A stretch of DNA of 62,942 bases, the filler included, from Fonticula-like sp. SCN 57-25 (taxonomy: Eukaryota), in assembly GCA_001724245.1 (NCBI GenBank). It is 3 parts of 3 records of this genome, joined end to end, with 100 filler letters (N's around TTAATTAATTAA, not from the genome) between each part and the next. Parts side by side here need not be neighbours in the genome. Positions count along the whole stretch, not along the records: positions 21,274 to 42,262 come from MEDX01000087.1; 2 more parts are not named here. One strand, 5' to 3'. The notes under the pieces were generated by a model. That model made no database searches. It was not told where the DNA came from and saw nothing but the letters and a program-made list of their open reading frames with translations. Numbering within the stretch: the stretch's first letter is position 1; every line of letters begins with the position of its first letter. The position numbers and the translations under genes are program-made. Positions 2,543-53,157 of this stretch are shown here, piece by piece.

Positions 2543-2785
2543 CAGCACAACGAACGCTGCATGAACGATTCACCGCGGGCGAGAACACAGCGACAACACG
2601 TGATTGAAAAGTGACGGTGCAAAATGTACCAAGAACAAAGCCCTACAACGCCTAACCTGCGCTTGACAGGGGAGCTATCAGAGGTGAATGGGCACACAGC
2701 GCAAATCTGCACCAGCTGTTGGTGACTGAAATTGAATGAAATGTATTGAAAAATTAATGAAAAGCTACATCTATAAACGCTCGCT

Positions 2786-11700: not shown

Positions 11701-14700
11701 CTAAACATTTGGTTAGTAATACTAATCGAAGCACGGCATTTCGCACCGACGCCAGCCAAGAAGCGGCTTGGTATACGTTTTGCACTGACTCGTCGTTCAC
11801 CTTCTGTACTCGGAAAATATACGTCAACATCAAACGCAAAAGAATCTGGTATTGTGGCCCGTACCTGCGCGTTTGCGTTCAGCTCGCTGATGTACTGCGC
11901 ATCGGCCGACGACGCGAAGAACGTAATGGCCCACTTGGCAGCTTCAAAGAGCTGGCGCCACCGCGCGGCGTCGCGTGCAATGCACAAGCGTTGAATGGCA
12001 ACATTAGAATAGGGCTTTAGCTTGAAGTGCTTGACAAACACATCGAGGTGGCTCGGCGAAAAGTTGCTGTCAAAGCAGTGGAGGTCGGAAAGGGTAACCG
12101 ACGCATCCTTCTCATCCGCCAGCTTTTCAATCAAAGACTTTAGTTGATTGGTCATTGTCTTGACAACAGAGTCGAGCTGCTTCAGGGATACGGCTGCGAC
12201 GGGTAGATTAGCGTCACGCCAGCGAATATTAACAACGTACGCTGCATTCCTTCAACATAGCGATCGACAAACGCTTTGAAAACGGCCGATTTAGCGAATG
12301 TAGCTTGCAATGAGGCTAGCTCCTCTTGTTGCTTCGTCAGCACAAAGCGGCTCCGCAAATCGGCCACGGTCATTCCATTATCCTAGAAAGGCATGTTAAA
12401 AAAGGCATGAAAACAAAGGGAACATACGGCCTTGGCAAGCTCTTTTTCCACCTCAAGGGAAGCACTGAGGAAGGAGCGAGTGAGGTCAATGTAGCTCCGC
12501 ATGCTCTCCCTGCGAACGTCGGCAGCAGCAATGATATCCGATGCGGATTGGACACCGGCTGCCAAACCTGCAGCAGAAATATTCGCAAAGAGCGGATACT
12601 TGTAGAATGACTCGATCGTCGAAATGCGTTGGGAAAGATATATCATATTGTCTTTAGAAACGTCGAGGCACCCATTGCAAATACGCTGGCATTCCTTCTG
12701 CAGGGCTGACACAATGCTCTCAACAAGCTTGAGCTGATTAGGCATAGGAGAGTTTGAACCATATTTGCTCACAAGCGCTTTCCAGTCCTTGAGGCTCACG
12801 GAGCAAAGAAGGCGGATGGCATCAGCCTGGGCAGTCAAGCGGCTCATCAAGAATTGCAAGGAGTCAAAAGCGTTCCGGCCCGGGATTTTGAAGATCTCCA
12901 CAAGGCGCTCCAGCACAAATTCCGTGGCCAAGGCATTCTGCATGACGATACTACCACTGCTCGGATCGCAAAGACGAGAAACATCAGCAACGATGTTGGG
13001 AACCAGAATGTGAAAGCGAATCAGCTTCTCTTGCAGTTTCGGCAACACTGTTCTGTAAAGCAAGCCGTCCTCGGTAGAAAGCATCACGGCAGGAAGCAGT
13101 GAAGAAGGGGCGACCGAGCGAACTATCTCCTCAAACTCGGACCTGATAAAGCCCGTAAACCAGTCGCCCGCAACATACAGCAACCTATTCAAGATCCTCA
13201 CACATGCATCCTGCTCTCTGAGTGAAACGGGTTGGAGTGAAGCGGGTGAAGCTTGGAACAGCATCAACATTGATTCTTTTCCCAACCTCGCCAAGGATTT
13301 TTCGGTCGAATCCTTCAAAAACGCCACCTGGTCAGCAAGACGCTTCCTCTGATCAATGAAATGCAAGGCAGCATTCCTATCCTTGATCCTATCACAAAGC
13401 TGCTCCACGTAGAAAACGTCCAGTCCGGCAGAATGCTCCTCGTATGCAACATGAAGAACAGCCAGCGGGAAGGAGAGCCCCAAAAAATGCATGCAGGCGG
13501 CCATGCTATCAACAAGCTTCCATAGGGCAGCTTGATCGAAGGAGGCTGCGTTCGGGTTGCCTGCGTCCATAATAGTAACGAGCATTGAAATAACGCCTTC
13601 CCACGCCGGCTGACCAACATAGCGTTCGGACGAAAAGTGTTCGCACGCGCGTAGAAGTTGTGGAAGCACATTTGACAGCCGCTCCAGCAGTTGGGGCTTG
13701 ACCAGGACTTCTGCACAAAGAGAGTTTGCGCAGTTCACGGCACCAGATAACACATGATGATCCAACGTAGTATTGCGACCTTCCTGCAAAACCTTTTCGA
13801 TGACATGAAAGGCGACGGCCTCAGGGATTCTCATCCTACCCTGCAACAGGTAGGCGAGGAAAAGTGGGTTCACTGTCAGAAGCGGATCGGGCTGATCGGG
13901 CCGATCGGGTTGACGCGACAAAAACTCGAGCAGACCTCGGACATAGTTGTGGGAGCTGATGCTCTGCAAAATATTGGGCGCATATTCAGAGCTCGAAATC
14001 ACCGACCGGTTCAAGACGCTCGCCGCAAAATTCTGAGCGGCACCAAGCCAATTCGATCCAGCGCGGTTATACTCGGCAGCGTAGTTTGTTGCGTACGCGA
14101 GCGCGTCATAGACGGCGGAAGCCATCCCCACATCATCATGCTGGGCAGCATAGGGATGGATTGTCACCAAAGAAGCCGGACGCGCCTTGAAGAACTGTGT
14201 ACCACGGCTGGAGTGCATTGTCACATCCACGTCTTTCTTGTTCAAGTATGAAGTCGGGATCAATAGACGGTGCACACTCACATTATCATCATCCGATGCA
14301 AACACCTGCGTGCTCTTTTCGATTCTCCTCTCGTTGGTCGTGCAACTGTGCAGCGAAGAGTCGCCAATCACATAGAGGAGGAGGTGCATGCGAGCAGGGA
14401 CGACGAGCGTGATATCATTCGAAGGAGTGGGGTGAGTGAGAACCGAGTTGCGAGACGCGCAGTAGCCTTGTGTATCCACGGCGAACGACACCTTGTAGGA
14501 TCCAACTTCCGACAACTGAATCGGAAAGTTCACCTTCAGTATTTCGCCTTGATCAAACATGCCGTCGACGACAAAAGAGGTGCCGCCTTCATGCTTCACG
14601 GTAGCAGAACACTTCCACTTGTTTCTCACCAGATTTCTAAACGACTTGTCCATCGTGATGAAAAGAGTGCATGCCAACGGCTCGTCAATATTAATCGCTT

Positions 14701-16897
14701 GCAAATCTGCCTTTGGCGTCCACTTGATAGAGAAGGTAGGGGCGTCCGGATGAGCAAGCGAAGGGAGCGAGATCGGCGCCGTCGCCTCGCCAAATCGGAA
14801 TTCTGCCTTTGTCGCCTTTACAGACGGCACATCAAAGACCGACTGCCCGTTCGTTGCGTCAAAGGCCTTGACTTTGCCTTCATCATTCCAAATTGAAACG
14901 GACATGCGCTCCGTCGAAGAAAAAATCGTAGACGAAGCCTTTTCCTTGACCGTCAATGTCCATCCTCCCCGCCGATTGGGGGTTGCCGAAGTAACAAGCT
15001 CGGGCAGGATGCACAAGCAGCGATTCTGCGAGGCTGCCTCGATGTTGTCGTACAGAATCACCGCCACCTTGGTCAGGACTGGCTCGACCGTTGCAGGGAC
15101 GCTAGCCTCAACAGACGCGTCCCTTTTGAACGACATCGTGTGGTCGACAGCGCTAGGCGCAGAGCCAACCCGAAGAATGACAGGAACGTGATCGGGAATC
15201 GCAGGCTTGAAGGAAGCCTTGCACATCCAGCTCATACCATCACGCTCTTTTTCCCAAACGAGTGAAGCGATGACCTTTTCAGGAGGAATGTACAAGTCGG
15301 CCACCTCGTCATAAAGAACCTGGCTTCCAAATTTGACCACTACGGAAGCCAAAGTGGCCGCCGCGGACACCGGAAGAGACTTGAGCATAGTCTTGGAATT
15401 TCCTGGATCGAGTTTCACCAACTTGTCCATCACAAAAAACTCCATGCTCTCCTTTGCCGCGAGCTCGCGCGAGAGCTCGAGTTCGAAAATTAAGCCGCTC
15501 TTTGTCACCTTCTTGGCAAATGACAAGACACTCAAAGCACTATTTCCCGGGGCCGACACCTCGCTCGTGTTGCTGAATTGAGGCGGAGTTGGCTGAGCCA
15601 GCTGCTTGTTTCCATCGCCGGCGACATCCGCGCGAGATACCTCGCCGGTCTGCGTAGCACCGCCGCTGCGCCCTTCAAGGCGGGCGTCTCTGAAACCTTG
15701 CGGTTCGAATCCTGCGGCTGCTCATCGGTGCTCGATGTCGACGCCAGCTTCTTGGGGTCTTTCTTACCTGCGCCGCTCCCAGCGCTGATCTCAGTAGGCT
15801 TGTTCGCAGTAGAGGACGCATTCGCCGCCTTCTTGCTGCCCGCGGGCTTCGCATCAACCACATCTTCGCCACTCTGGGCACCAGCAGCAGGCTGCTTGGC
15901 CGTCGTCTTGCTGTCCGCAGGCTTCTTGTCATCGATGACCTCGCCACTCTTGGCACCTACAGCAGGCTTCTGAGTCTTGGTGGACGCTTCAGTCGCCTCT
16001 TGCTTGCTGCTTGTCGGCTGCGCAGACTGCGTGGTCTCGGTGGATGCCTCGGCCACCTCTTGCTTGGCGCTCGCGGGCTCGGAGCTGTCGGCAGAAGCAT
16101 TCAAAGCATTGCTGCCAGTGGCGGGCTTGGCTTCGTCGTCGCCCAGGGGTGTGGCTTCAGAGGCCGGACGCGTCGAGTCGGGGATTGAGGTCATCTCCTC
16201 AGTGTGCGCTGCGGTCAAAGGCTGCGGCTCGCGTGAGTTCGAAGGTTTGGCGGTCGCACCGTCAGCGACCTGCGGATCGCTCGGAGCGACCGGGTTGTCG
16301 CCTGCGGCAGGGAAACCGCCTACCTGTGGCGATGCCACCTGACCATCGGCCGCACTGCCGTTTGACGACGCGCCCGCTGTAGCGGTGTCTTGTACCACAA
16401 CAGCAGGCGGGGCGCGGGCCGCGAAAGGCCACACGCGCGGACGATCTGCCGCGGGAGCCAAAGGACCAGACAAACGCCTCTCCGCTGGAGTCATATTCAC
16501 TTCAATGGGCAGCAGCGATGGTGTGATGGGCTGCGCATGTTCGTCGCTCCAGTTGAGCGGCGGGAGGCCGCGGTCGGTGTGGAGCGCGGCGTTGGTTGTG
16601 GGGTACCAAATGGAGGGAGTCCAGTCGATGTCGTGCACAAGCCCACGCATAAAAATTGGATTCATGGCGGAATATTCGGTATCCACAAGCACCTTCATGG
16701 CGCCATCCTACGCGAGTGGTCAGCATTGAGCAGGTCATGTCGACATTACGCACGATTGGCTCTGCAGCCGAAACAGAGAGCGTGGAGGATCGCCCAAATG
16801 TACCGGAAACTGTGCACAAGTTAGCAAAAACGCGTCATAAGAAAGCTCAAAACGCACGGCCTGAACCGCCGCCCGGTATCGGGCGCTGCGGGTTCAT
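2786..16897 (-). CDS. giant RNF213/mysterin-like dynein-related AAA+ ATPase, multi-exon
   Basis: RNF213-type motifs occur in order: SSHAGTGKS, IPVIIMGETGCGKT, WVFLDEIN, ACNPY, VSLRDVAR, LLENVF, PVFLVGKPGSSKSLS, LLDEVGLA, NPLKVLH, GISNWSLDAAKMNRA, LYDMLNQNY, FLNRFEKH. The ORFs can be joined by short GT-AG introns. The inferred first exon is MNPQRPIPGGGSG with ATG at 16897. Confidence 0.85.
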
Positions 16898-17048: not shown

Positions 17049-18359
17049 ATGGAGCGGAGGCTCGACGAGGCGCGAGCCCTGGAGGCGATTTACGGGCCGG
17101 ACTCCTTCGTCTACCAGGTGGTCTCTTCGAATGAAGTCAAAGGTCAGCTTAGCCTGAGTGCTCGCCTTCCCGATGAAGGCGTTATTATTCGAGCCGGCAC
17201 GCTTCCCGACCGCACGCTGCGTCATCTGCCGCCCCTCGTCGTGAGCTTTACGCTACCAGAAAACTACCCTGACCGCGAGCCGCCCACGGTGCGACTTTCG
17301 TGCTCGTGGCTTCCAGTGGACGATATCGACGCAATTGTGCAGGAAGCGGCGGATCTCTTTGTCGAAGGCTCGGAAAGCGTCTTTGTCATGGTCGACCGCA
17401 TTGTGGAGCGCGCGTCCGATGTGGCGGCCGGCGGCATCTCCTTGGACAAACGTGCGCATCCTGCCCACCTGTCATCTTCTCACTTATCTGTCTTTATCCA
17501 GTGACCGTGACCGACAATGTGCGCGCCGCTACGCTTGCCCTGCAAAACCTGGAGGCGTTTGATCGCACCGCGCGCCAAAAGGTGCGACTCTGCCTCATCC
17601 TCGCCGCTGCTAACCCTCGCAAAGGAATTTGACGAGAGCACGGTGACGTGCATGATTTGCTTTTCCTCATATGAAGGCTCGCGCTGCCTCATGCTGAGCC
17701 AGTGCGAGCACTCATTCTGCCGCGACTGCCTCGGCGGCCTTGTTGAGGTTGCCATCAAGGACGGCAGCTGGGCGGCCCTCGTGTGCCCCGACATGGGCTG
17801 CAAGAAGCAACTCATGCCCGTGGATGTGCAGCAAATTGTGCCCGCCGACCGCCTTGAAAAGTACGAGGAAGTCATGCTGCAAACGGCGCTGCGAACCATG
17901 TCGGACCTTGTGTACTGCCCGCGGCCAATATGCCGGTCGCCCGTCATCCGCGCCGACGCCGCCGACAAGCTCTGCATTTGCGGCAGCTGCAGCTTTGTCT
18001 TTTGCGCCATGTGTTTTAGGTCGTTCCACGGGCCGTCGGACTGCCGAGCCGACTCGGGGATTATCAGAGAGTTCATGGCGGCCGACGAGGACCACCGCCA
18101 GCAGCTTGAGATTATGTACGGCCAGGCGACATTTAGGCGAGCACTGGAAGAGTTTGCCAGCGTCGAGTTCCTTAAGAGCACGTCGACAAAGTGCCCCAAC
18201 TGTTTGACAAACGTCCACAAGATTGAGGGGTGCAACAAGATGCACTGCTCCATCTGCGACACCAACTTTTGCTATCTCTGCGGGGCAAAGCTCGGCGCAA
18301 TACCGTACCGCCACTTTGACCAAGACACGTCACCGTGCCACATGCGCCTCTTTGACTAG
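17049..18359 (+). CDS. RNF14: RWD-domain RBR E3 ubiquitin ligase (RNF14/ARA54/Itt1-like)
   Basis: RWD domain (EARALEAIY, HLPPL, LPENYP..PP), RING1 (CMICF...CEHSFCRDC...CPDMGC), IBR (YCPRPIC...CGSCSFVFCAMC..FHG) and RING2 (CPNC...KIEGCNKMHCSICDTNFCYLC) with the catalytic Cys retained. Confidence 0.9.
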
Positions 18360-18484: not shown

Positions 18485-21173
18485 TCACATTGCCTCGTCG
18501 TCCTGCGCCTCCCCCTGAGCCTCGCCCGCATGGCCCACGAGCGCCCAGTCGTCCTGGTCCATCTCCTGCTCCATGCCCGCGTGATCAGTACACCACATAA
18601 GCCCCTCATTGACGAGCACAACAACGTTTGGCGCCAGCTGCCCCGCCGGCACAGTGAGCGGCTCTGGCTTGTCGCGCGTGATGCGGACGACGCCTTCGCC
18701 AGCAGCCGACACGCTCTTGATCATGCGCAGCCGCTGCCGGTCGACAAGGCTCCCCTTGCTGACAATGACAACATGCTCGGTCGTGACGGCAAACATCCAC
18801 GGCACGTCTGCGCCGCCACCGGACCCGCCCTTGAGCTTGGCGAACCCGCGGGCGGCCGCCGGTGCGGCCATCCACTCGACGAACGCGAGCATTGACTCGT
18901 GCGCAAACCGCCCACCATCAACCTTTTTGAGGAGCGCGGCGGCGGTCGCCTCGCGCGCGTTGTACGGCCGCAAGACGCCATCTACGGCAAAGAAGCGCGG
19001 CGTCCGCACACGCTGCACGAGCGTGCCTGACCCGCCGCCGGCGACCATGTCGGCCGTGTTCTTGATGCCCGTCGTGATGTGCGACGCGCCGTCAAACACG
19101 CCAACGACCGGCTTGGTGACGAGGCCGGCCACGCCCTTGCCGACGCCCTTGAAAAAGCCGCCGACGCCCTCTGACTTGGCGCCCTGCACGGGCTGCAAAA
19201 ACACGCCGGTGACACCGCTGCCGACGCCCATGGCAATAGACTTTGCGCCCGCCGCCATGCCCGTCAGCACGTTGGTCGCCGAGCCTGAGCCGGTGGACGC
19301 GCGCGCCGCCTTGTCGCGGCGCCGCGATTCTTGAAAGTCGGCGTCAAAGGTGGCCTCGGCGAGACCCGTGCCGACCGACGCAGTGATGCGCGAAATGCCG
19401 TCCACGAGGCCAAACACAGAGTTTTTCAGGAGCGACGCCGTGCCGCGGCCGACGCCCTTGGCAAAGTCCTGCGGTGAGCGCACGATGCCCTGGTACGGCT
19501 CGTAGAAAAAGTCGTCCACGCCCGAAGCGAGATTGGAGAAAAAGTTGACTGGGTTGCCGAGCGTGTCGACCGACAGCACGACCTTGTACAGCTCGGCGAC
19601 AACCTGCTTGGCATAGTGGTTGCCCAGCCGCGTGCCAATCTCGGGCATCGGCATGGACGCGTGAACCAGCTCGAGCGCGTTGAACCCGAGCGGCGCGTCG
19701 ACCACGTTGCCGAGCGCCGTGCTCAGCACGTTGAACACGATGCCGAGCGTGCGCACAATGAGCCGCGACGACTGCCGTGCGCGCTCGTGGTCCACCTTGC
19801 TTCCGGATGAACGCACAAAGGAAAGGTCGAGGCGGATCGGCTGCAGCTGCAGCACCTCAAAGTACACCTCGCGCGCCGCCGCTTCAGTCGCCTCACTCGA
19901 GGGCCGGATCGACGCGAGCGCCTTGCTCAGTGCCGTCGAGTTGCCTTCGCCAATCCAGTTGGCGAGCACCGTGCCGGCGTCCGAGGCGCCGTCCTGCGCG
20001 TCGCGGCCGCCCTCCTCGAGCGAGTCGCGCAGCATCTTGACGAGCCGCACGACGACCGCCTCCTCCACCTTGATCGACAGCTCCTTGAGCAGGATGCTCG
20101 CGTAGCGCACGTGCAGCACGCCCATCGAAGACGTTGCCTTGCCAAGGTCGACAATGATGACGGCGCGCAGCAGCGGGTCCTCTTCGGGGCTCGGGAGCCG
20201 CGCTGAAGAGGCCTTGCTACGCGCATTGCCGGCGCGCAGCGCGCGAGAAAGCATGACGGGGTACAGCGGCTCGTGCAGCTGGTTGTCCACCTGGATCGCC
20301 TGCAGCTGCACCTCGAGGCTTGCCTCGCTGTTGTGCGCCATCAGCATCTTGACCATCGGTCGCGTCAGCCGAATGTACATGAGCTCGCGCGGAGCCGCGC
20401 TCGAGATCGACAGGCCAATGCCGGGGAGCGACAGCGAAACGGAAAGCACATTCCGCAGCGGACTGCTGTCGCTCGAAAAGGTCGTCATGGTCGTCTGCAT
20501 CGTGCTCAGCCGCGACGTCGACTTTGACGACGACCGCATATCGGGCGTGTTGTACTCGATGTGGATATTGCGCACGCCCTGCTCGAGCGTCGTGGTCAAA
20601 ATATACTTTTTCCCGCCCGCCCGTAGCTTGCTGCGCTTCCCGATGGCCGCCGGGTCGACCGTCACATGCTCGCCGCTGCACCAGAAATCGAGGCGGCGGA
20701 GCGGCGCCGACGGCGCGTCCCAGCAGTAGGGCAGCACCTGACGCGGCCCGACCGTGTGCGTCTCGTGGCCGTGACGCATCGCCGCGGCCGGAAGTGCCTC
20801 GTCGCTTGCGCTCTCCATCCGCTCAGCGACCCACTCGGCCGACGGCTGGCCAAAGTCAAACGACTCGCGCGTGTAGTTGCGGATGCACAGCGGGGCAGTC
20901 GCACGGAGGCCGTGCACGACAATGCGGATCGTCGAGGCAACCTCGCTGCCGTCGTCGTCACATGAGATTGAAAGGCGCATAACGCTCCCGCCATTGTTGC
21001 GCGCAATGCGCACAAACATGTCACCCATTACGGACGCGGCGATCGGCGCGGACCAGCCGACAGAGTCCGCCGTCTGGATGCAAAAGTAGCGCTTGGCGGC
21101 GTCCAGTGCCCTAAAGTGCGGCACGGCGTGCTCATTCGGGCGAAGCTGCAGCATACACCCTTCGGTAACTGCT
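18485..21173 (-). CDS. VPS13: VPS13 family lipid-transfer protein, C-terminal part (5' truncated at contig end)
   Basis: PYCWDAP, LPGIGLSI..RELMY, IQVDNQL..LYPV, YFEVLQLQPI, DTLGNPV..DFFYEPYQG, PVQGAKSEGVGGFFKGVGKG..KPVVG and RVRTPR, followed by a PH-like tail. Confidence 0.93.
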
Positions 21174-21273
21174 NNNNNNNNNNNNNNNNNNNNNNNNNNN
21201 NNNNNNNNNNNNNNNNNTTAATTAATTAANNNNNNNNNNNNNNNNNNNNNNNNNNNNNNNNNNNNNNNNNNNN
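21174..21273. other. artificial contig-joining spacer (N44-TTAATTAATTAA-N44)
   Basis: Exactly 100 nt with a central 12-mer that gives stops in all six frames. Genes on both sides are cut off. Confidence 0.97.
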
Positions 21274-25482: not shown

Positions 25483-25634
25483 GCGTCATATTGCGTCATT
25501 TGGCGCATTGTACAACATGTAGAGCATCATGTAATTTATTGCAATTCCGCATTTAATCTATCCATATCATGCATACTGTACACAAAGGGCATTCATCAAC
25601 CATTTCCGACGCCTGCACATATGGGCGTGCATCG

Positions 25635-28600
25635 CTAGAATCCTCTAACATTTGTAAAGCGGTTCCGCTTGAAAAAGGCGCGCAGCCCGAGGTAGTCCGC
25701 CACCCAGCTGCCCGACGAGCCGACCTCGATGAGCGTGTTGCGGTCCATGTACGCGTCGCGGCCGGCAAAGACGCTGTCAACAAACACGTCCACAAAGTCT
25801 GGGAGAACATCAGTTTAAAGGAAAGAATAAAAGAAATAAGCGTACCAAGCTGGACGTCGGATGCTGCGTCGGCGCTTTCGTCGTCGTCGGCGCGAATGAT
25901 GACGCGCGCGTTGCCGCTGTACGGCCCGACGAGCAGGAACTGCGGAATGTCCAACACGAGGTCGTGCTTGGAGCGCGACTTTTCCTCGTTGCCGCGCGAG
26001 CGAAGCAGAGGGCGCTCATCGGGGAGCAGGATGCGCTCTAAACAAGGAAAGGTATGAGAAGCAGGGAAGGCGGGAAAGGCGGAAAAGTAGCCAAAAAGTA
26101 GCCAAAAGCAGCAAAAAAGCATCAAAAAGGTCCAAGAAACGCACCGTATTCGACGCTCTTTCCGTCGCCGCTGCCCTGCTGCACCTCGTGGATCGCATAC
26201 TCATCCAGGCGACTGGCATCCACGTGGACCGCCTCTGCGATGCGCTGCTTGAGCTCTTCTGCCGTCATGCTGTCACACCACTGCGTGAGCGACATCAAAA
26301 TATACTATAAAAAGCGCACCTGTCGGCGACTGCAATGCGCTTGTGCGCGACAAACTCGACCTTTGCGCGCGGCCGCGGCGTAATTGGCGTCAATTCCGGG
26401 TTCTCGAGGTACACCGAGATGTGCTTGGTGCCCGGCGCGGCGGCAAGCGGCGACGCCGGCGGCTCCTGCGGTGTCTTTTGCTTGTCATTAGCGCGTTTGA
26501 GGGTCGGCGACGACTTTTCCATTGTGCCGCGCGGGGGCGACTTGGCGTCGGCGCGCTTCATTGACTTTGTGTCGGTCGAGCGCTTGAGAGTTGAGAGCTT
26601 GCTGGCCTGGAGGGCGCGGGTCTCGGCAGCGTAAATTTCGCGCTGGCGAGCGGCAGTCGTCGCAGAGTCATAAATGACCTGGGGAATGTTAGAATACCGG
26701 AAAATGCGGGGAAAGGGAGGAAAAAAGAGGCAAAAAGGTGCAAGAAAGGGCAAAAAAGTGCATAAATAGTACACGAAACAAACAATAAGTATGTCAAGGC
26801 GTACATCTGACGCCTTTTGGATGACGAATCTGCACACTTCCTCTGACCCGCTTGTATTCGCCATGACCTGAATGGGCATCTCTGACGGTGCGAGCGGGCG
26901 CTCATAACAAACATTCATCGCCTCGAGGTCTCCAAACCGCACCTCGTAGAGAATATAATCTTCCTCTACTGCACCCTCCTGCCCCGCCGACGCCCTCTTC
27001 ATAATGTTATTGATGAGCCCCTGGGCCGTCAAGTGCGCGTCAATCGGCACCGACTTGTACTGGTAGTCACGCAGCGACCGCCGCCCCGACGTCGAAGCGA
27101 GCGTCGTTTCCTTTGAAAAGAATACTTGCACGACACCGTGCGGGAGCATATCAACGCGCGAGAATGGCAGGAGCGACTGCGGCGTCTTTTCCTGCGCGCG
27201 GCCAAACATCTTTCTGAGCGTGCCCGTCTTTGGCTTTTCGACCGCCGGCGCGGGCTCCTTGTCCAGAAAAGTGTCCTTGACGAGCAGGAAGCGCATGTGC
27301 TGCTCGACGCTGAGGAGCTTCCAGCGCTCAAAGGCGTCGAGCGGCTTTTCGGGCGACGCAATCTTGCGCTGGTACACAATCTTGTTGCCGGGCGCCACTC
27401 GGATCTCGAATAGGACAATGTTGCTCGCGTTCATCGAAAGCTGCTTCTTTTCAAGCACGGCCTTGATGACTTTTTGCGTGTTCATGTCGGACGAGATCTG
27501 AAGGGTAGAATAGCCGGTGAAGGCCTGGTCTTGCACCACGGTCGTGTCAAAGTGGACCTGCACAAAGGCAGTGCGGACCTCGCGAGAGCGGCGGAGCGCC
27601 TTGGGGATGACGGGGCGCGTCACCATCAGCGACGTCAGCGCTGAAAAAGAAGCATATTAGCAAAAAAAACACGACAGAAATCGACATAAAAATACAGAAA
27701 ACAACACGAAAAGACACGCCAAACAAATGCATTGCCGCATTCCGCATTGCGTACCTTCGATGACTGTACGCAGATTCTCGCGCGAAAAATCGCCATAATG
27801 CTCCGGGTCAAAGAGGCGGTACCCCATGGCAAGTCGGTCCTCCACGTCACCGTACGCGAGCCGCCCCAGCACAGTGACGACATCCTTCAAGTGAACGCGG
27901 CCGTCATGGTCCGAGTCGAAAATGCCAAAAATGCCCGTGAGCGCCTGCTCCTGCTCCTCCGTGTCAATGTCGGTGCGGAGTCGGCTGATCTCGGGCAGAA
28001 AATTGAGGAACTCGCGGCGGTCAAAGCCCTTGGGCGACTGCAAAAAGAGCAGCTTGAGACGAAGCGGGTCAATGTTGAGCATGCTTGAAAGCATCCTAAA
28101 CTGCGAAGCGGCGCGCAGCTGCTTCCGCGGGTCCTGATACTTTTCCTGGTCGTCGATCTGGCGCAGCCCTTGCTTGATGAGCTCGCGCTCCTGGTTCTTC
28201 TGCTCCATTGTGATCTGCTTGAGGCGGCGGAACTGATCGGCGGCGAACGCAGCGGCCTTGTCGGCCTCGATCTGCACGCGGAACTGCTGCTGGCGCTCGG
28301 CAAACATGCGGCGCTGCTCGCGCTTGCGGAACGCAGTCTGGATTGTGACGACGGCGCGGCGGAGCGCAACATACCTTTTACATAAATTAGCAAACACAGC
28401 ATCAACATAAACGTTTGCCCGTACTCGCGGCGCTCGCGCGACATGCGGAAGCAGCTCTGCAGCAGGACGACCAAGTGCGACACCTTGTTCTTGTAGAGCT
28501 CCTCAATCTTTATCTGCAGCTCAAACTTCATGTACAGCTTCGTCTTGCCCACCTGGTAGTCCACCTTTTCCTTGTAGCCGAGCGCCGCCAGCAGCGTCGA

Positions 28601-31110
28601 GCACATCTTTGGTGTCACCTTGGACTTGGCGTTGAAGATGATCTGCCGCGGGTTGATGACCCAGTACTTGCGGTAAAAGTCGTCGAAAGTGAGGCGCAGC
28701 GGGTAGCCTTCCCGCCTAAGCCTCACAGTCTGCATGACACCAAGGTAGTTCAGCTCCTTGGCCACCGTGTCGTCGTGAAAGATCTGCGGCTTCTGCTGAT
28801 CGTTGGGCTTGATGCAGCAGATAAAGTGCGTGTCGCTGCTCTCGAGGCGCGCGAGCAGCAGCTCCAGCGAGTCCTTAAAGTACGTGCCGACCGTGCGCAC
28901 TTCCTTGCGGCGGCCAAAGTCCTTGCTGCTCTTGCCGATCAGCCCGGTGATCGACAGGCGCTTCTTGGAATTCCGGTCCATCTGCGACTCGCGGCGGAGC
29001 GTCAGGTTGCGCAGCAGCGACGAGCTCGGCGTGCGGGCAATAGACGGTGGCCGCGCAGCGGCAGGCGAGCCTGAGATGGACGGGCGGCCGCGCATGCTCG
29101 GGCTGGACGGCGTCGAGGGGGCGGCGTCGGGCGCGGGCGTGATCGGCGTCGCAGCCTCATCAGCAGCTTCCTGCGGCTCCTCAAACAGCTACGCACCTCA
29201 AGGTAAGCACAAGCAAACCAACGAAAGAGTGCCACGAACCGTCCGGATAAAGGCGCTGCTGCTGGCGCGCAGGCAGTTGAGCATGTCGCCGTGGAAGGTG
29301 TCGCTGTTCTTGCTGATAAAGCCCGCGATTTCGTACTCGACCGGCGCCGCAAAGTGCTTAACGACAAAGTGCGTCTGCGCCATCTGCTGGTTGGTCGGCT
29401 TTTGAAAGCACGCGTGGTTGCCCCACTCGCTGCGGATCTTGCCGAGAAGAATCGTGTCGGTCATGTTTTGCAGCATCGAGTACTCGTCAATGAGGTCAAA
29501 GATGCCGACAGGGCGCTGAAATAGGTCAGTTAGATAGGCAGAATAGCAATGAAATACACACCTTTGTGAGCATCGTGATGGTGTCCTTGTTGTCATTGTA
29601 GTCAATGTACTTCCAGTCGATGCCCTCAAACTTGTACTCTTCCTGCTCGACCTGGAACAGCTTGTAGTTGAAGAACTGAAACATACGCTCATTGGCATAA
29701 TTGATGCACAGCTGCTCAAGGCTGTTTGTCTGCTCATCATACTCCAATTAATAAAAATATCAAAGTCAATAGCGCGTACGGGAAAGTTTTCAAAGCCAAA
29801 AATGTCGAGAACGCCAATGTGAAGCACGCCCTCATTCGCGCCGCCTTCCTCCACGTGCTGCATGCTTGCATTGATGACCCGCACCAGATGCGTCCACAGC
29901 TTGTGGTAGAGCTCCTTGGCAAGCGCATCGCGCGCGTCCGACGCCTGGGCCGCGGTAAGGTTCTTTTGAATGCTGTCGGCATTGGCGTCGCTGAGCAGCG
30001 TGCGGCGGGTCAGGGCGGCAGTCAGACTCGCTGGCGAGATATGAAGCAGCTCGGCAGATATATTGACGGCTAAAATGGCAGAATAGTTAGACACTAAAAT
30101 TTGCATGATACTAATCCAAAACACATACCGTTTTCGTTGGCGATGATGGCAGTGTCATCATCGCTGGCGGCAATTCCAATGTTGCCGATCTGAAGAATGG
30201 CCGACAAGAGCGAAAAGATCTGTGACTGCATGACGGCATCAATACCGTGGGCGAGCATGAGCTCCTTGACGCGTGCAAAGTTCTCCTCATCGTTGGTCTG
30301 CTGCGCCTCTGTGACGGACGAGATGATGTACGAGTAGTTTGAAAAGCTGCTGCCCAAGCGATACTTGTACCGCTCTTCTTCAGTCGCGCCGCTCAAGAGG
30401 GCGTAAAAGATGTGGAATGTGCGCTCCTGCTCGCTGCGCATCACGATGCGCGATTTCTCGAGCAGGTACGACGTGATCGTGGCCCCCCTCAGCTTTCCAA
30501 ACCGGTCAAACTGAATAAACATAAACTTGCCAAAGCGCGACGAGTTCCTGTTGCGGATCGTCTTTGCGTTGCCAAACATCTCAAGCAGGTGCCCCGCCGA
30601 GACGAGCTGTCCCTTCACGCGGACATCGCCTCGCCCCGCGAGCTGCGACAGCGCCGTGACAAAGTAGGTGGCGGACTCGGTCTTTCCGGCACCACTCTCG
30701 CCCGAGATCACAACGGACTGATCCTTGGTCTTGAGCAGCATGTTGCGGTAGACGTGCGACGCGAAGCCGTACACGTGGGGTGACTCTTGCAGCGACCCAA
30801 ATGCGGCATAGATCGGGATCAGGCGAGTGTTGTACGTCGGCAGGGTCTAGATCGGCTGCGTCAGCATGCATGCCCCGTGCGGCCATGCGGTGCGTACCGT
30901 GTAGGGGTTCATCGCGATCAGGATGCTCCCAATGTAGGTGTACACCTGGTCCGCCTGGAATCGGACCTTGAGGTTGGTCAAGATCCCGTTCTCGTCAAAC
31001 GAAGACAGGCGCGCGAGATCGGTCTGGCCGATCTGCATCGGCGACGCAAGCGCCCGCAAGGTCGCCATCTCGGCCACCGCGGCGGACGCCTTCACTTTGG
31101 CCGCCAGCAT
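25635..31110 (-). CDS. unconventional myosin: motor, two IQ motifs, EF-hand module and three Ras-association-like domains
   Basis: [15 protein letters not shown]-loop [37 protein letters not shown] and [11 protein letters not shown] motifs LLQSCFR and IQTAFRK. EF loop FDSDHDGRV. Repeated tail units ending [21 protein letters not shown] and [11 protein letters not shown]. Stop TAG at 25635-25637. Confidence 0.88.
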
Positions 31111-33252: not shown

Positions 33253-36200
33253 TCACTGTTGAATTGACTGTTCAAAAATGGCGCGCGTCCGAACGTGCAA
33301 ATTGTAATTGTCGACGCGCAGCTCGATGAGCCCCTCCTTCCTGAGCTGCTCCGGGTCGTCGAGCCAGTGCAGGATGCGCGCCGGCTCGGGCTGTAGCGTG
33401 ACGACCACGATGACGTAGTGCACGCCCGCCTTGTCCGAGTGCTGATTGGCCACGCGCCACTCATTGTCGCTGATAATGAGCATGCGCTTCCACTGGGACG
33501 CCTGGCCCTTGACTTCAAACATGTAGCGGTCGCCGCGCGGCCCGATCGACCCTTCGCTGTCGACGTACTCAAAGTCATACCCGAGCCTGTTGTTGCCTTC
33601 ACCGAGCTCGGGGTAGTGGTGTTCGCGCGTGCGCGACACCCAATTGTGCTCGGTAAAGTTGGCCGCGTGCTCTGTGGAGACGACAAATGTCAGCAAAAAA
33701 CTAGAGCAGAATAGATAGTAAAATGGCGCACGACGCATGTACTCGAGGAAAAAGATTTCGGCGATGGCGCCCAAGTGCGAGTCGAGCATGTTTGTTGTTA
33801 TCATTTCGTCCATGGATGACCCCTTGTTTGACGTCTCCATCTCAAAGCGACCAAGGATAGGCTTGAGGCCGCGCATCGCCGACATTTCGCCCTGCAGCTC
33901 AGAAGGCCGCGTGTTGGGCGTCCCGGCGGCGAACTCGCGGTGCAGCGACTCGGGCGTCATGTCGAGGAAGCGCGGGCGGTCGCCGCTCATAAAGGCATCC
34001 GACTCGCGGAAGTTGGACGGCAGACGCGGGCGGTCAAGCGCGGTCGGCGGCAGCTCCATCTCGAGGAACTTGCGGCCGTGAAACTCGCGGTTGCGTTTCT
34101 CGCCAGATTCAAACTGATAATAGCAATAGTATGAGTATGGCGTCTAAAGCGGCACGGAGAGCGGCAAAACACGCACTGATTGACCTTCGCGGCCCGGGCC
34201 GGGGAAAGGCCTGCGGTTACTCGACTCGGAAAACATTGAGCGGTGCTGCTCGTACAGGAGCCGCGAGCGGTCCGTCTGGCTCATGTCGCGGATCTTGCCC
34301 AGGTCGGGGAGCGCGCGCGCGCGGCTGGAAAACTGAGACCAGATGCGTCAGTCAAGCTAAAGTCGAGAAAAGTACAGAAATGCGTACCGGATCGCCGAAA
34401 AGGTCGTCATCGTCGCTATACTCGCCCTCAATGTCGCCCTCGATACGTGGCGCGCGCGAAAACTGCCCGTCACTCGCTTCGTCGTGCAGGATGGCTCCTC
34501 GCCCGCGCCTCGGCGAGTCAAAGCGCCGCTCTCCCTGAAAGCGCCCGGCCCCGCGCCCGCGCATGGGCCCCCGCTGCACGTCGTGCCCCGTGCCTTCATG
34601 CTTGCCGCGCACGTGGTACCCCTCGTAGTTTTCGGCGCTGCGGACGGCCATGACGCGCTCGTAGTGGCTGTTGCACTGCTCGTTCCACTTTTCAACGTCC
34701 TCCGAGGTGCCCACGCGCTCGACGGTGAGGTCGCTCGAGAGCATCTTGATCATTGTCGGCCTGCAAAGCAGTGAGCACACGGCGCGCACTACCGAATGAA
34801 GCGTACGTTGAGAGGGTGTGCAAAAGCAGGTCCATGGGAATGCCGGTGATAAAGTTGAGAATGTCAAAGTTAATGGCGAGGCGGCCGTTCCGTTCGGCGT
34901 CGACAAAGAGCATTGGCGGGCGCTTTTTCTTGGCCCTAGCGCACACGTAAGTAAACAAAACCATAAAAAGGCGGCCGTACTCTTGCAGGAAAAAGAGCTC
35001 TGGCGTGTCTGCCTCGGCGATCTGCTGCTTGCGCACGCGGAGGGATCGACGCACCATGAGGTCGCGGACGTCGTACACGAGCAGGTGGTTTGCCAGCCCC
35101 TTGAACCTCTCCTGCACGTCGATCTGTGCCTCGGTCGTCCCCTCCTCCTGCTTGACGTGCAGGCCGAGCACGAGCGAAATGGCGCGGCGGTACATGATTG
35201 ACTTTGCGTGGTTGATGGCCGGAGCCGTCTTCCAGACCATCCAGGACGACATGAACGCCGACGCCGGGATTGCGTCGAGCGAGAGAAGCAGCGTTGGCGC
35301 CCACTGCGAGATGAAGCGGTCAATGATGCCCGTCGGGAAGAGCATCTCTTTTTGCAGGACCTCGCCGAATGCGGTCCACACGGCGGGGTTGTCGAGGAAC
35401 ACGGGGCGGCTGAGGTCAGCGACCTGCGCAAGGAGCCACACGCGCGCGCCTTCCTGCGCGCCCTCAAGCAGCAGCGGCAGACCGACCAACTCGGTCAGGC
35501 TCGCACTGTCGTCTGTTTCGAGTACCGTGTTGATCGAGCGGTACACGTGGGCGAGCGTCGTGAGCGTCTCGTTCTCCGCATCGAGCGTGTCGGCCGCGCG
35601 GTCCGCCTGAAGCTCCGCGAGCCGCTCAGGCGCAAGCAGCGGCAGCGCCTTGAGCTTCCGCATGGCAGTCGTGTGGTCGGCCAGCGTGAGCGTCTTGCTG
35701 ACAAGGAAAACGGTTGTGAAAAGCGCCTCGAACGCGGGGTCGACGGCGGAGGCCAGCACGAGGCCGGCGTGGCGGGCGATGGCGGCGTCGCCGCTCCAGC
35801 GCGCAAGGTCACGCGGCACGAGCATGTCGTCTTCCGTGCCTGGCACCGCGGCATTCATCCAGAGGTAGGGGAGCGCAAACTGGATGCCTTCAAGGTCGCC
35901 GCGGAGCAGCGCGCGGTGCAGCTGTGCGTACAGGGCGTGCCACGTGGTGGGGTTGGGGCACTTGTGCTCGGCGACCTGCATAAGGCACTCGCACATCTCC
36001 TGCGGCGTCTGCTTCCAGGCAATGCCGAGAAGGTCGAGAAGCGGCTCGCGCTCAATGGGAACGGCGGCGTAGTGAATGTACTCGCCACAGAGCGCCTCAA
36101 AGTGGCGCTAAAGAGTGTCAGCAAAAGCACGATATACATCATTGAGCGTACACGCGAATAGAGACGCTTGCGACTGTAGCGCGTTCCGTCCTCGGCAAAA

Positions 36201-39200
36201 GGTTTCAGCGACTCCAGTCTCTCACGAATACGCGGCGTGTCGAAAAAGACGTGGAACCACTCATCGACAACCGAGATGAGGCGGCAGTACGCGTCAAAGT
36301 CTTCCGCGGCCGCGTCCAGCAAACGATCCAGCTCGGCGGACGGCACAACAGACTCGTCCGGCTGCAGCAAAAGGCGAGGATAGCGACCAATACCAAGCTG
36401 TAAGCAACGTTTAGCAACTTTAACTAGCACTGCTACCGCGCGCGTACCTTTGCCAAGAATGTGATCCACTCGTCGAGCCCATCTCCGTCCGACGGCAAAA
36501 GTGCCATGAATCCGGCATCCGCGACGCGCACTTCACACACGCCGTCAAAGACGGGCCTCACGTGCGGGAGGTAGAGGTCGATTGGCCGGCAGAGCTGCCC
36601 GCGCTGGTCCGGAACCAGCAGCAGTGAGCCAAGGGCCTCGGCGGGCTCCTCCGACCCCGTATCCAGAAGGCTGACGTGCCGGCGGACGTACTCGAGGAGC
36701 AGCCAGAACGCCTTGCGCGACGGCGCGCTCTGCGGTAGGATCTGCACGACAAACTTGGCGAGCGTGCGGTCGTCAGGGACGGCGATGCCGAGCCGTGCCA
36801 GAAAGGTCGTTGTGCGGCTGTTGACCGTCTCAGGGTCCATGAGATGCGGCGCCGCCCACGCGCGCAACGCATCGGCGTCCGGCGGCAGAGATTGAAAGAT
36901 GGCCGCTTTCCTGTCGTGCAGCGCCACCAGCGAGCCGTCGGCGAGGCGAAGACACGCCGTCTTAGCCAGCTCGACCGCGTGCTCGTCCAGGTCATCCAGG
37001 CGGGTCTGCAGGAGCTCGTAGACCGTAGCGAGGCTCTCAGACGGCTTACTGGCCAGAGGGACTGCCTTGAGCCACGCGACCACATCGCCGACGCCAAGCT
37101 CGCGGACGTGCAGCTTGCGCATCGCCAGGTTGCGGTCAAACGACTCGGCGACCCACTCGCGGCCAACGGCAACCAAAAGCTCTTCGTTGCTGATGAGGTT
37201 CTCTGCGCTACGGTAAGTCACCAAGCGCTCGCTATTTGTGCGTACCGTATCCTGGCGCTGTCAGGAGCACGTCTTTTGGGGCGGCGAGCTTGCCCGACAC
37301 GGTCGGGATGCACGCCTCCGTCGCGATGAGGTTCCACAGCTGCTCGACCATGGCGCGCCAAAAGTTGTCCGAAACGTCGTCGGGAGACGGCAGGAACACA
37401 TGCATGAGCGAGCGCACGTGCTCGTCGGCGTGCAGGCACTCGACGAAAAAGGGCGCAATCTGGTCGCGCAGCCAAAGATTGACCGGCTTGCCGTGGTGAA
37501 TATCCTGCCGCGACGTCACAAGCTCAAAGTCGGCCTGCACGATAAAGCGCAGGCCGGCCTGTTTCACAGGGAGGTAGCAGAACACAAACTGGCCGGGGTA
37601 CGTCGACCCGGGCGGGAGGACGGGGAAGGCAAGCGCAAGCTCGGCGACCATCGGGCGCGACTCGTCCTGCAGCAAAAAAGGCGGCACAGTCAAGCGCTTG
37701 CGATGAACCCTGCACACAAAAAGGCAAGTTAATACACTCTTCGCGTCTATTTTGAACGCATTTTTACGTACTTGAAGTTGAGCCGCGAGTGCTCGCCGGT
37801 GGCCATGTTTCGAATCGAAAGAGTCGTCAGCAGGTCTTCGCGGGGCGACACAAGCTCGATTTCCTTGGCAAACGACGTCTCGACGCCGTCGTCATTGAGC
37901 GAAATGAGCGTGACGCCGAGTCGACGGAGGCGACGAAGAAACAAGAGGATGTGGTCGACGCCGCCGACGTCGGCCATGATCTCCTTGTCGAGCTGGTGGT
38001 CGGCGCGCAGCGGCAAAAAGATGCGCGTGTCCTTCCACCCGCTACCGTCCTCTGCAAACTGCCACGTCGGGACAAGGGAGGCCAAGTCGCCGTCGGACAG
38101 GTTGGACGCCGGCTGCGGAACAATGTGTCCCAGCGGCGCCTGCGAGTCAAAGTTGAATGCAAAATTGCGCGAAAAGATAAACGGCCGGTCAGAAACTTTA
38201 AACACCGACTTGAAGCCAACGCCCTTGCGGCCAATGTGCACTTCGGCGTCCGTCTTGGTGGAGCCGCCAATGTCGCACAGCGCGACCACGTTGGCATTGC
38301 GGAAGCCAACCTCGTTGTTGGACGAGAGCACATAGCCACCCGTGGGCCGCAGATTAAGCTCGAGGTGAAAGCTCGGGAGAACCTGGCTCTCGTACGAGTT
38401 GTCGTCGGCGTTCTGGATGAGCTCGACCACAAAGCGCGATGATGACGAGTAAATGTCGGACGCAAGCTTCTGGATCGCGCTTGTGAGCGTTGTGTGCAAA
38501 CTCGAAAGGCACCCGCTCATGTGCGGCGGAATGTCCAGGTCAAAACCGCGACGGCGGCGCAGCCAGGCAATGAGGTCGCGTGGGTTGAGCGCCTCAATGT
38601 CGCTCTTGGAAAGGTTCTCGGTGATCGGGGGCGATGCGTCGGGAGGCGAGGGTGCAGCGGCGGCCGCGACGACAACACTAGTTGACGGTTCAGCAGAGAC
38701 ACTGACAGGCGCAGTGTGTGGCTGGCTCACAGGCAATGCTGGCGCTACAGCGGCAGCGGCGGCGGCTCGCTGGGCGCGAAGGAGCAGATGTTCGAGGCGC
38801 TCCTTCTCCCCCATCATGTCTTTCAGCTGCTCTTGGCTGCGCTCCAGTTCAGCGTCAAGCGCTTCAATGCGTTGTTCGGCGTCCTTCAAGCGACCTGCGT
38901 AAATCTCGACGGTGGCTTGATACTGCTTGAGCACCTCCTCGGTGACGCGCTCGTCCGTCGCGGCGATCTGCGACGCCAGCGTTTCCATCTTTTTTACGGT
39001 GAGCATCGTCTTTTCGTGCCAACCACGCTGTTTTTCAAGTCGCGTCGTGCGAAGGCGCATTTCGGCCAAGTAGGCAACCTGCGCGATCGCCGTCGCATTC
39101 AAAAATTCAGTCATTGCCCTACCACATGTGTGAGAAAGTGGCCACGTGAAGGGGAGAGAGCGCGCACTTTTCCGCCTGGGCTTGCGCCCGTGCCGCGCCG

Positions 39201-39670
39201 GGGAACCGGTTCACTGCTACCAATGGCGTGCTGTGCTCAAGCGAGCGGCAAATGCTTTCTAGCTGCTGATGCGAGGTCAGCATTGCTACCATCCGCTCCT
39301 CGAGCAGCGCATAGCGTGGCAGGTCGATCTTGAGCGAGTGAAGATGCGCATCCGCAGCCGCTTGCAGGTACACCTCCACGTCGTTTGTCAAAGCAAGGTC
39401 ACACGCAATCTTTCCGTTTGCATCGCGCATGTCGAGGGGAGCCCCCAGCCGTACGAGAAGGCGCGCGATCTCATAGTAGCCGAGGCACGCGGCCCAATGC
39501 AGCGGGGTGCGACCTATCGAGTCGACCTCGGCCAGCACTTCGGCGCTGTTGGCCAATTGCGCCACGCGCTCAAACTGACCGTCAGCGACTGCATGGTGAA
39601 GGATCGAGGCGGAGCTATCCTCCTTGAGCTCTCCCGCCAAGTGCGCGATCGACTCGTCCTCGTCCTGCAT
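33253..39670 (-). CDS. ankyrin + coiled coil + sacsin/NO VEIN-like GHKL ATPase + C-terminal DUF3883 (NOV_C) protein
   Basis: Ankyrin GRTPLHWAA. An intron at ~39119-39167 joins it in frame (AEK-AMTEFL) to FVVELIQNADDN, NNEVGF, ALCDIGGSTK, HIGRKGVGFKSVF and FCYLP..FIVQADF..SRQDI..NLWL. The C-terminus has LGYDFEY..FEVKG..ISDNEW. Confidence 0.82.
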
Positions 39671-52400: not shown

Positions 52401-52834
52401 CCGCGCAGGCGGAAGAGGCCCTGCTCGGAGAGGACATCCCACAGGATGACGCACGTGTCCTTGCCGCCGCTCGCTAGCCGCGAGCACGTAGCATCAAACG
52501 CGAGGCTCGTGACGGCGCCGCGATGACCCGTAAAGACGATCGAGTATGTGTTTGTCTCGAGGCTCCAGAGGCGAATGACGCCGTCCGCGTAGCCGACCGC
52601 GACGAGAGACGCGCGATCCCCGTGCCCGCGCGCGAGGCATGTCACCTCGGAGCGCTCGCCACGCCACGTGGTGCGCTCTGTGCCGCGGCGCGTGTCCCAC
52701 AAAACAACATTCTCGCACGCCGCAGAGATGGCGAGCTTGCCGTCTTCGTCAAAGAGAGCAGCGGGGCTCGCCTCGTGGCCGACGACGAGGCCAAAGGTGC
52801 CGAGCGCCTCGTACCGAAGATACGACTTTACCAT
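49430..52834 (-). CDS. WDR3: WDR3/Utp12/Dip2 SSU processome WD40 protein
   Basis: MVKSYLRYE start, GLFRLRGHKD, LPGHRTDVR, LKFFLSLYGHKLP, WGLDFGDCHKS..AH, SHDRSLRVWERTDEQLFLDEEREKQLE, and a Utp12 C-terminal domain (KDAMGFNRAAM). Confidence 0.95.
51410..51515 (+). repeat. intronic ~12-bp CATGATCCCAYA tandem repeat
   Basis: Repeated CACATGATCCCA/CATGATCYCA units inside a WDR3 intron. Confidence 0.75.
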
Positions 52835-53157
52835 GCACGCTGCACCGCCGCACTGTCCGCGAGTGTCACAGTTCAATTGCGTTCCGGAATTGTCGATCCG
52901 GAAGTGTCGATCCAGAATCGAGTTGATCGCGATCAGGTTGGAATGCATTATTTTTTGAATCGTTTGGTGGGGAACTTTCACTGCCTTTGAAAACAGCAGC
53001 GGCCCGCCGCCTCCACGATCGCACGACGCGCGCACGCCTGGCAGTGATCTGGATGGACGCGCAGCAATAGCCATTTGAAGGAATTTGAATTAAGTTGTAG
53101 TTAATTAGCTGATCGTCAGTCGTTTGTGAATCGGACCATCTTACCGCATTGCCCGCC

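Follow-up and report, generated by a model that had tools for sequence, protein, structure and literature searches.

A predicted unconventional myosin with an EF-hand module and three Ras-association-like units in its tail in Fonticula-like sp. SCN 57-25

The genome of the eukaryote Fonticula-like sp. SCN 57-25 (GenBank assembly GCA_001724245.1) contains a gene for a predicted unconventional myosin whose tail combines an EF-hand module with three Ras-association (RA)-like units. The window analysed here is a stretch of 62,942 nucleotides joined from three parts of this genome; the gene lies on its minus strand at 31110..25635, within the part that comes from record MEDX01000087.1 (positions 21,274 to 42,262), and all coordinates given below count along the window. 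The best explanation of the data, to which we give slightly better than even chances, is that this is one unconventional-myosin gene of a small, unnamed family, in which the RA domains, the EF-hand module and a long insert in loop 2 of the motor play the roles proposed below. The anatomy on which this explanation builds, with motor, IQ motifs, EF-hand module and RA tail in a single gene, stands on firmer ground, and the architecture, as the comparison of sequences shows, is real and conserved and recurs in a few microbial eukaryotes.

Gene model and collinear relatives

The window is eukaryotic nuclear DNA (GC content 48-63%, short GT-AG introns), and the stop-to-stop frames of its minus strand between 31158 and 25553 carry pieces of a myosin motor and then EF-hand/RA strings. 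Read off the strand, with the model checked by script, the myosin gene comprises 12 exons (31110-30898, 30846-30129, 30069-29780, 29741-29562, 29515-29240, 29188-28425, 28374-27755, 27640-26805, 26678-26331, 26280-26145, 26037-25846 and 25798-25635) that encode a protein of 1578 amino acids (aa). All 11 introns are of the GT-AG type and 38-126 nucleotides (nt) long, seven of them measuring 38-59 nt and four 107-126 nt; the joined frame has 1578 codons, no internal stop and a TAG terminator at 25637-25635. Position 25635, the lower bound given to the tail in a preliminary description of this DNA, is the final base of that stop codon, and downstream of it, at 25540, the coding strand reads AATAAA. 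Five of the 11 intron donors (introns within 25799-30897) read GTACGC, which may serve as a signature of the host genome.

Exon 6 encodes the end of the motor together with the first IQ motif (IQ1), exon 7 the second (IQ2), a charged helix and the EF-hand module, and exon 8 the first two RA units (RA1 and RA2); the gaps between the motor, neck/EF and RA parts amount to just one 50-nt and one 114-nt intron. The same anatomy is found in a metagenome contig of 6553 bp, denoted L001, in which the motor, two IQ motifs, the helix, the EF-hand module, RA1-3 and the C-terminus are all encoded on one strand. In a tblastn search with the myosin model, this contig gave collinear matches on a single strand over aa 31-1578, with 43-67% identity to the window in the motor pieces and 29-50% in the tail pieces, and its frame breaks near aa 413, at 467/468 and at 1460/1461, which are exon junctions of the window gene. 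Among shorter relatives, the frame runs unbroken from the EF-hand module to RA1 in three protein fragments (P0122, P0125 and P0127) and from RA2 through RA3 to the C-terminus in a fourth (P0142). Because 12 GT-AG exons form one open frame and L001 is collinear with it and shares intron positions, the motor and the tail very probably belong to a single gene, as the preliminary description had proposed.

Domain architecture of the predicted protein

The motor domain (aa 29-790, 28496..31026) was delimited with the Pfam Myosin_head profile (PF00063), positions 2-679 of which are jointly covered by five exon pieces (E 1.7e-10 to 3.1e-72). Motif matching, against what we take to be the consensus forms, located the P-loop GESGAGKT (aa 120-127, 30679-30702), a 15-residue switch I (aa 164-178, 30526-30570) and the switch II sequence DIFGFE (aa 399-404, 29789-29806); the ATPase motifs are intact, and the motor is complete and looks catalytically intact. 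Only 28 aa precede the motor, and the N-terminus of L001 is likewise short.

Between Myosin_head profile positions 526 and 543, the motor carries a loop-2 insert of 96 aa (aa 560-655, 28901..29188), 35% of which is Ser, Thr or Pro, with a net charge of -4 over the first 40 residues and +10 over the remainder. The length of loop 2, measured as the number of residues between two flanking anchors, was compared across 106 aligned motors, namely those of the window, of L001 and of 104 of 120 listed reference proteins (16 with fewer than 600 motor residues, including three class IX fragments, were dropped). The window motor (n = 1) has 111 such residues and class IX (n = 26) has 96-177, whereas the ranges are 26-29 in class I (n = 34), 31-73 in class II (n = 25), 29-38 in class V/XI (n = 4), 35-51 in MyTH4-FERM myosins (n = 3) and 27-50 in the others (n = 12); a value of 96 or more is thus confined to class IX and the window, the 78 other references spanning 26-73. 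The value of 37 obtained for L001 is an artefact of a segment-based assembly that skipped this stretch, and frame 2687-3613 of the contig runs on through a long low-complexity stretch at loop 2.

The neck contains two IQ motifs (aa 797-838, 28302..28477, spanning the 50-nt intron 28424-28375), recognized as 11-aa regular-expression matches at aa 802-812 and 825-835, and L001 frame 3821-4219 reads through the IQ stretch without a break and over the same length. The following charged segment, rich in Gln, Arg, Glu and Lys and defined by composition (aa 839-905, 28101..28301), could form either a coiled coil or a single helix; the matching segment of P0122 is modelled as a helix (residues 2-29) with a predicted local distance difference test score (pLDDT) of ~71.

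Next comes the NCS/KChIP-like EF-hand module (aa 928-1030, 27612..28034, including the 114-nt intron 27754-27641). The EF-hand string that had been reported to follow two IQ motifs was recovered letter for letter in the minus-strand frame 27657..28502, downstream of both IQ-like motifs. In PDB searches, the single sequence matched yeast NCS-1 (chain 1fpw, E 7.2e-7, query residues 145-205 on NCS-1 65-125), and a seven-sequence family profile matched KChIP2 (2.7e-13) and NCS-1 (4.5e-13) best, followed by KChIP4, frequenin, GCAP2, hippocalcin and recoverin, with calmodulin at 3.8e-8 and calcineurin B at 1.1e-7. The profile alignments cover residues ~62-139 of NCS-1 and 41-128 of GCAP2, a part that we equate with EF2-EF3 plus a portion of EF1, and by sequence the module most resembles EF1-EF3 of NCS/KChIP proteins. 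Its earlier description as NCS- or calcineurin B-like agrees with this outcome, in which NCS and KChIP chains top both searches and are closer than calcineurin B. One 12-residue loop fits what we take to be the usual EF-hand pattern at every position except the last; its residues F152, D153, H156, D157, V160, L162 and D164 in exon 7 are invariant in all four sequences compared, and the DxDxDG loop is kept among relatives that are just 28-41% identical. The module may bind Ca2+. NCS proteins are free chains of ~190 aa with four EF-hands and an N-terminal myristoylation site, whereas here the module is an internal domain of a 1578-aa chain, so that an N-terminal lipid anchor is impossible for it.

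The three repeated ubiquitin-fold-like units that had been noticed in the tail were located as RA1 (aa 1040-1146, 27264..27584, from Pfam RA and the P0122 model), RA2 (aa 1177-1299, 26805..27173, with the best Pfam RA stretch at exon 8 residues 191-277) and RA3 (aa 1383-1500, 25919..26429), a divergent beta-grasp unit whose coding sequence is interrupted by introns 26330-26281 and 26144-26038. Before RA3 lies a basic low-complexity linker (aa 1300-1382, 26430..26678; 16 Lys+Arg versus 8 Asp+Glu) to which no Pfam family matched. The Pfam RA profile (PF00788; cut-off 21 bits) matched two stretches of exon 8, which encodes RA1 and RA2, with a score of 52.8 bits, and it exceeded 21 bits in seven of eight fragments from relatives (13.1 in the eighth, P0124). 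Profile comparison with hhalign gave a probability of 96.9% for RA1 and RA2 (E 1.4e-10), 95.4% for RA2 and RA3 (E 1.7e-8, 103 columns) and only 41.5% for RA1 and RA3 (E 2.7e-4); on these comparisons, the three units are to be regarded as homologous repeats, beyond chance. In the PDB, the RA2 family profile reached Afadin RA1 (chain 6amb_B, E 1.6e-6, 83 columns) and, more weakly, RIAM and RalGDS; the single exon 8 protein had no match there, Afadin being reached by the family profile only.

Structure models of two relatives extend these comparisons: P0122, which is 68% identical to the window and covers the helix, the EF-hand module and RA1, and P0142, which covers RA2, RA3 and the C-terminus. 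RA1 of P0122 (pLDDT ~80-90) is modelled with the element order strand-strand-helix-strand-strand-helix-strand, as are RA2 (70-88) and RA3 (residues 254-365; 54-80) of P0142. The best Foldseek matches of RA1 include the RA domain of Rasip1 with Rap1B (TM-score 0.79, root-mean-square deviation (rmsd) 2.4 Å), Afadin RA1 with HRAS (TM-score 0.81), RADIL, NORE1A with Ras, and the PLC-epsilon RA domain with HRas; RA fold matches thus include domains solved with Ras or Rap, RGL1-KRAS among them. With VIA-align, RA2 matched the RalGDS RA domain (Z 10.3, rmsd 2.6 Å, 91 residues aligned), and RA3 matched ubiquitin variants, the plexin-C1 Rap-binding domain and the SHANK3 SPN domain (Z 8.8-8.9). Because of these Pfam, profile and fold matches, RA1 and RA2 are RA domains, and RA3 is most readily described as a divergent homologue of RA2 with a beta-grasp fold. 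The preliminary assignment of all three units to the RA fold thus stands for RA1 and RA2, which pass the Pfam RA cut-off, and extends to RA3 only in so far as all three are modelled as beta-grasp domains. The protein ends in a C-terminal extension of 78 aa (aa 1501-1578, 25638..25918), modelled in P0142 as helices with low confidence; its final hydrophobic-basic stretch, W..Y..L..FFKRN, is conserved in all three aligned sequences.

Affinities of the motor and distribution of the family

In a FastTree phylogeny of the 106 motors, the window and L001 form a pair with 100% support that lies outside classes I, II, IX and V/XI, each of which is well supported, the backbone of the tree being unresolved. 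An IQ-TREE analysis (LG+C20 PMSF) with 32 hand-chosen references (five of class IX and 27 others) recovered the pair as the sister group of class IX (ultrafast bootstrap 91, SH-aLRT 81); class IX itself forms a clade (100/100) that excludes the pair. The stems of the pair and of class IX are both long (0.74 each), and a position beside two MyTH4-FERM myosins is not rejected by an approximately unbiased (AU) test (p 0.221). By sequence, a sister relationship of the motor to class IX, a link absent from the preliminary description, is therefore moderately supported. The myosin family probably represents an unclassified class of its own, as judged against reference motors that came from one word-index search and leave out most protist classes and all orphans. 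The earlier proposal of an undescribed class is plausible, as far as this restricted reference set allows a judgement. We judge the combination of EF-hand module and three RA units to be a new tail architecture on a known kind of motor.

Among the proteins searched, there was no named protein with a myosin tail made of an EF-hand module and three RA units, and full-text searches of the myosin literature, considered by titles and the openings of abstracts, returned no description of such a tail. In the accessible part of one survey, RA domains occur in myosins only at the N-terminus in class IX or between MyTH4 and FERM in class XXII, and class IX (Myo9a/Myo9b) ranges over metazoans and filastereans; one of the two supplementary files of that survey contains no mention of EF-hand, tandem RA or PF00788 (Sebe-Pedros et al., 2014, PMC3942036). 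In the available part of an earlier inventory, RA is named only among the abbreviations explained in a legend (Odronitz and Kollmar, 2007, PMC2375034), and both RA and EF-hand are absent from the main text of a later one (Kollmar and Muhlhausen, 2017, PMC5583752). Because the latter, in the part available, counts 287 unclassified (orphan) myosins and foresees at least a tripling of the number of classes, another lineage-specific class would be unsurprising.

Class IX, the nearest class sampled, shares with the window myosin the loop-2 insert (96-177 and 111 inter-anchor residues, respectively), IQ motifs and the presence of RA in the same polypeptide. The window myosin differs in having three RA units in the tail instead of one at the N-terminus, in its built-in EF-hand module and in the position of its motor outside the class IX clade. 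In searches of every tail piece with E limits of 0.1 or 1, the class IX hallmarks C1 (PF00130) and RhoGAP (PF00620) had no match, and exon 1 gave no match to an RA domain preceding the motor. Class XXII, with its MyTH4-RA-FERM arrangement, also has RA in a myosin tail, as far as the accessible part of its description goes (Sebe-Pedros et al., 2014, PMC3942036), whereas the RA units of the window myosin are free-standing and in tandem, and neither MyTH4 nor FERM is among the families matched by its tail pieces. By profile and fold, RA1 and RA2 resemble RA domains from Afadin, where they stand in tandem, and from Rasip1, RADIL, RalGDS/RGL and PLC-epsilon. These proteins act as adaptors, exchange factors or, in one case, a phospholipase; none is a motor, none places three RA units behind an NCS-like module, and identity is 13-24% only.

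An exhaustive HMMER search with the sequence from exon 8 to exon 9 against 1.84 billion representatives retrieved 10 proteins at E <=0.001, one of them the window's own frame and the nine others unnamed fragments of 83-389 aa; the only name in the 10 clusters is 'hypothetical protein', borne by two 39-aa members. Jointly and in uninterrupted frames, the fragments bridge the EF-hand module to RA1, RA1 to RA2, and RA2 through RA3 to the C-terminus, and we infer from the sizes of the contigs and the identities that at least six further lineages beside that of the window possess the gene. A word-index search of longer proteins with exon 8, in which none of 1953 candidates scored, is weak evidence. 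An Atlas search with P0127 gave no match by features and only structural leads of low TM-score, the nearest to the P0127 model being Afadin-type RA-RA clusters (TM ~0.3, a lead only). The next-nearest motor, P0019, was considered and rejected: its tail is of low complexity and unrelated.

Proposed roles, alternatives and genomic setting

Under the explanation favoured above, the RA domains would bind membrane-located, GTP-loaded GTPases of the Ras/Rap type and so dock the motor there, acting as sites of cargo binding and activation by analogy with the Ras/Rap-binding RA domains of Afadin, Rasip1 and RalGDS, and the single canonical-looking EF loop would give the tail next to it a response to Ca2+ (or Mg2+). 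The basic loop-2 insert would tether the head to actin as in class IX, where the insert is described, in the part of the source available, as an electrostatic actin tether (Elfrink et al., 2014, PMC3887004). A motor built in this way could couple signals from small GTPases and divalent cations to actin-based force or transport. Binding of Ras/Rap-GTP by the RA units may be predicted from their sequences and models, and joint control of the motor by Ras/Rap and Ca2+ is a tentative proposal that we rate somewhat below an even chance. A bolder version, which we consider quite improbable, would see in this family a sister lineage of class IX outside animals and filastereans, single-headed and loop-2-tethered, switched by Ras/Rap-GTP through three RA domains and gated by Ca2+ through an intramolecular NCS-like clamp that might act, for instance, on the conserved hydrophobic-basic helix at the C-terminus.

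Several observations weigh against the favoured explanation, and three alternatives draw on one or another of them. The motor and the EF-RA tail might be separate, adjoining genes fused by an erroneous model: the donor of intron 9 (GTCGCC) is unusual, and support for the exon 9/10 junction comes only from the reading frame and from L001, whose uninterrupted sequence has the same length. Such an artefact would nevertheless have to divide a protein in which exon 6 links the motor to IQ1 and exon 7 alone links IQ2 to the EF-hand module, whose parts are separated by no more than the 50-nt and 114-nt introns, whose every other junction is bridged by uninterrupted frames in relatives, and whose order, strand and intron positions are kept in L001 at 29-67% identity; we regard it as highly improbable. 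Alternatively, the gene could be a divergent, domain-shuffled member of class IX that has kept the loop-2 tether, moved its RA domain to the tail and multiplied it there, and lost C1-RhoGAP. The sister position of the motor pair (91/81) and the long loop 2 (at least 96 residues), common only to class IX and the window among the 106 motors, would fit such an origin, as would a weak match of the RA1 profile to the N-terminal RA domain of a class IX fragment (P0002, E 7.8e-4). Yet the class IX clade (100/100) leaves the pair outside, the two stems of 0.74 make long-branch attraction possible, and the MyTH4-FERM placement is not rejected (AU p 0.221) while the FastTree backbone is unresolved. The protein, moreover, has no N-terminal RA extension in the 28 aa before the motor, and the Pfam search of its tail pieces gave no C1 or RhoGAP match; membership of class IX is, in our view, improbable.

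An alternative that accepts both the gene and its architecture, and which we hold to be unlikely although it deserves appreciable weight, takes the beta-grasp units to be plain protein-protein or cargo-adaptor modules without GTPase binding and the EF-hand module to be a remnant whose role is structural and independent of cations; it might, for instance, clamp one of the protein's own helices in the manner of a light chain. RA3 had no Pfam RA match, either on the window pieces from exons 9-12, which gave no Pfam match at all, or in P0142, and its fold matches show no preference for RA domains: ubiquitin variants, the TBCE ubiquitin-like (Ubl) domain and the PI3K adaptor-binding domain match it as well as GTPase binders do (Z 8.7-8.9). 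The whole P0142 model, with RA2 and RA3 together, is closest in Foldseek to the tandem ubiquitin-like domains of USP7 (Ubl1-2, E 1.4e-8) and to ISG15. More generally, RA folds lacking Ras binding, such as FERM F1 lobes and ubiquitin-like domains, score nearly as high, and the models are those of the relatives P0122 and P0142, not of the window's own spliced protein. In the EF region, the Pfam scores are below threshold (EF-hand_6, 21.5 bits against a cut-off of 25; EF-hand_7, 19.1 against 30), and the one canonical-looking loop has Asp, not Glu, at position 12. The second 12-residue loop is degenerate: position 5 is Tyr, and relatives show no conservation of an acidic residue at position 12. 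Unlike in the NCS family, there is no equivalent of EF4, the alignments ending near NCS residue 143 with RA1 directly next, and the region is modelled in P0122 at a pLDDT of just 40-50. The conserved hydrophobic-basic stretch at the C-terminus (three of three sequences) could then be an internal target of the EF-hand module. Against this alternative, RA1 and RA2 exceed the curated RA cut-off, the domains that they match best, by fold and by profile, are RA domains whose structures were determined together with Ras or Rap, and the DxDxDG loop has been kept across relatives of 28-41% identity.

A convergent coiled-coil gene ends ~150 bases downstream of the myosin gene, and minus-strand frames at 33253-39210 that encode a C-terminal domain of the NO VEIN kind and a domain of the sacsin type are possibly parts of one large gene. 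In another part of the window, a run of long minus-strand frames at ~2786-16707, among them one of 1112 aa, possibly represents one giant AAA-type gene; its sole recognisable part is a P-loop at 8197-8991 of the dynein-related AAA_5/AAA_7 kind. Between it and a VPS13-like gene represented by its C-terminal part (VPS13_VAB and VPS13_C; 18485-21217, minus strand), which runs into the run of N at ~21218-21262, lies a RING-IBR-IBR frame of the RBR-type E3 ligase kind (17511-18359, plus strand). Two plus-strand frames of 232 and 231 aa (45299-45997 and 48509-49204), ~3 kb apart and 66% identical over 227 residues (E 6e-113), match no Pfam family, lie in DNA of lower GC content (48-51%) and look like a tandem duplication of one gene. 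A WDR3/Utp12 gene with at least three exon frames (49430-53089, minus strand) is 41-43% identical to its best named matches, from zoosporic fungi, and 36-42% to those of animals and plants; the genome therefore appears to be without a close sequenced and annotated relative. Rfam and tRNA scans of the window found none.

The tail of a myosin sets the place and time of motor action, and known myosins sense Ca2+ via separate light chains. By combining an NCS-like sensor of its own with three RA domains, a heavy chain as proposed here would be a direct Ras/Rap effector on actin. If the weak link to class IX holds, the loop-2-tethered type of motor would have originated beyond animals and their closest relatives. 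Were the improbable reading of the family as a Ca2+-gated sister lineage of class IX true, one chain would unite the functions of GTPase effector, calcium sensor and motor.

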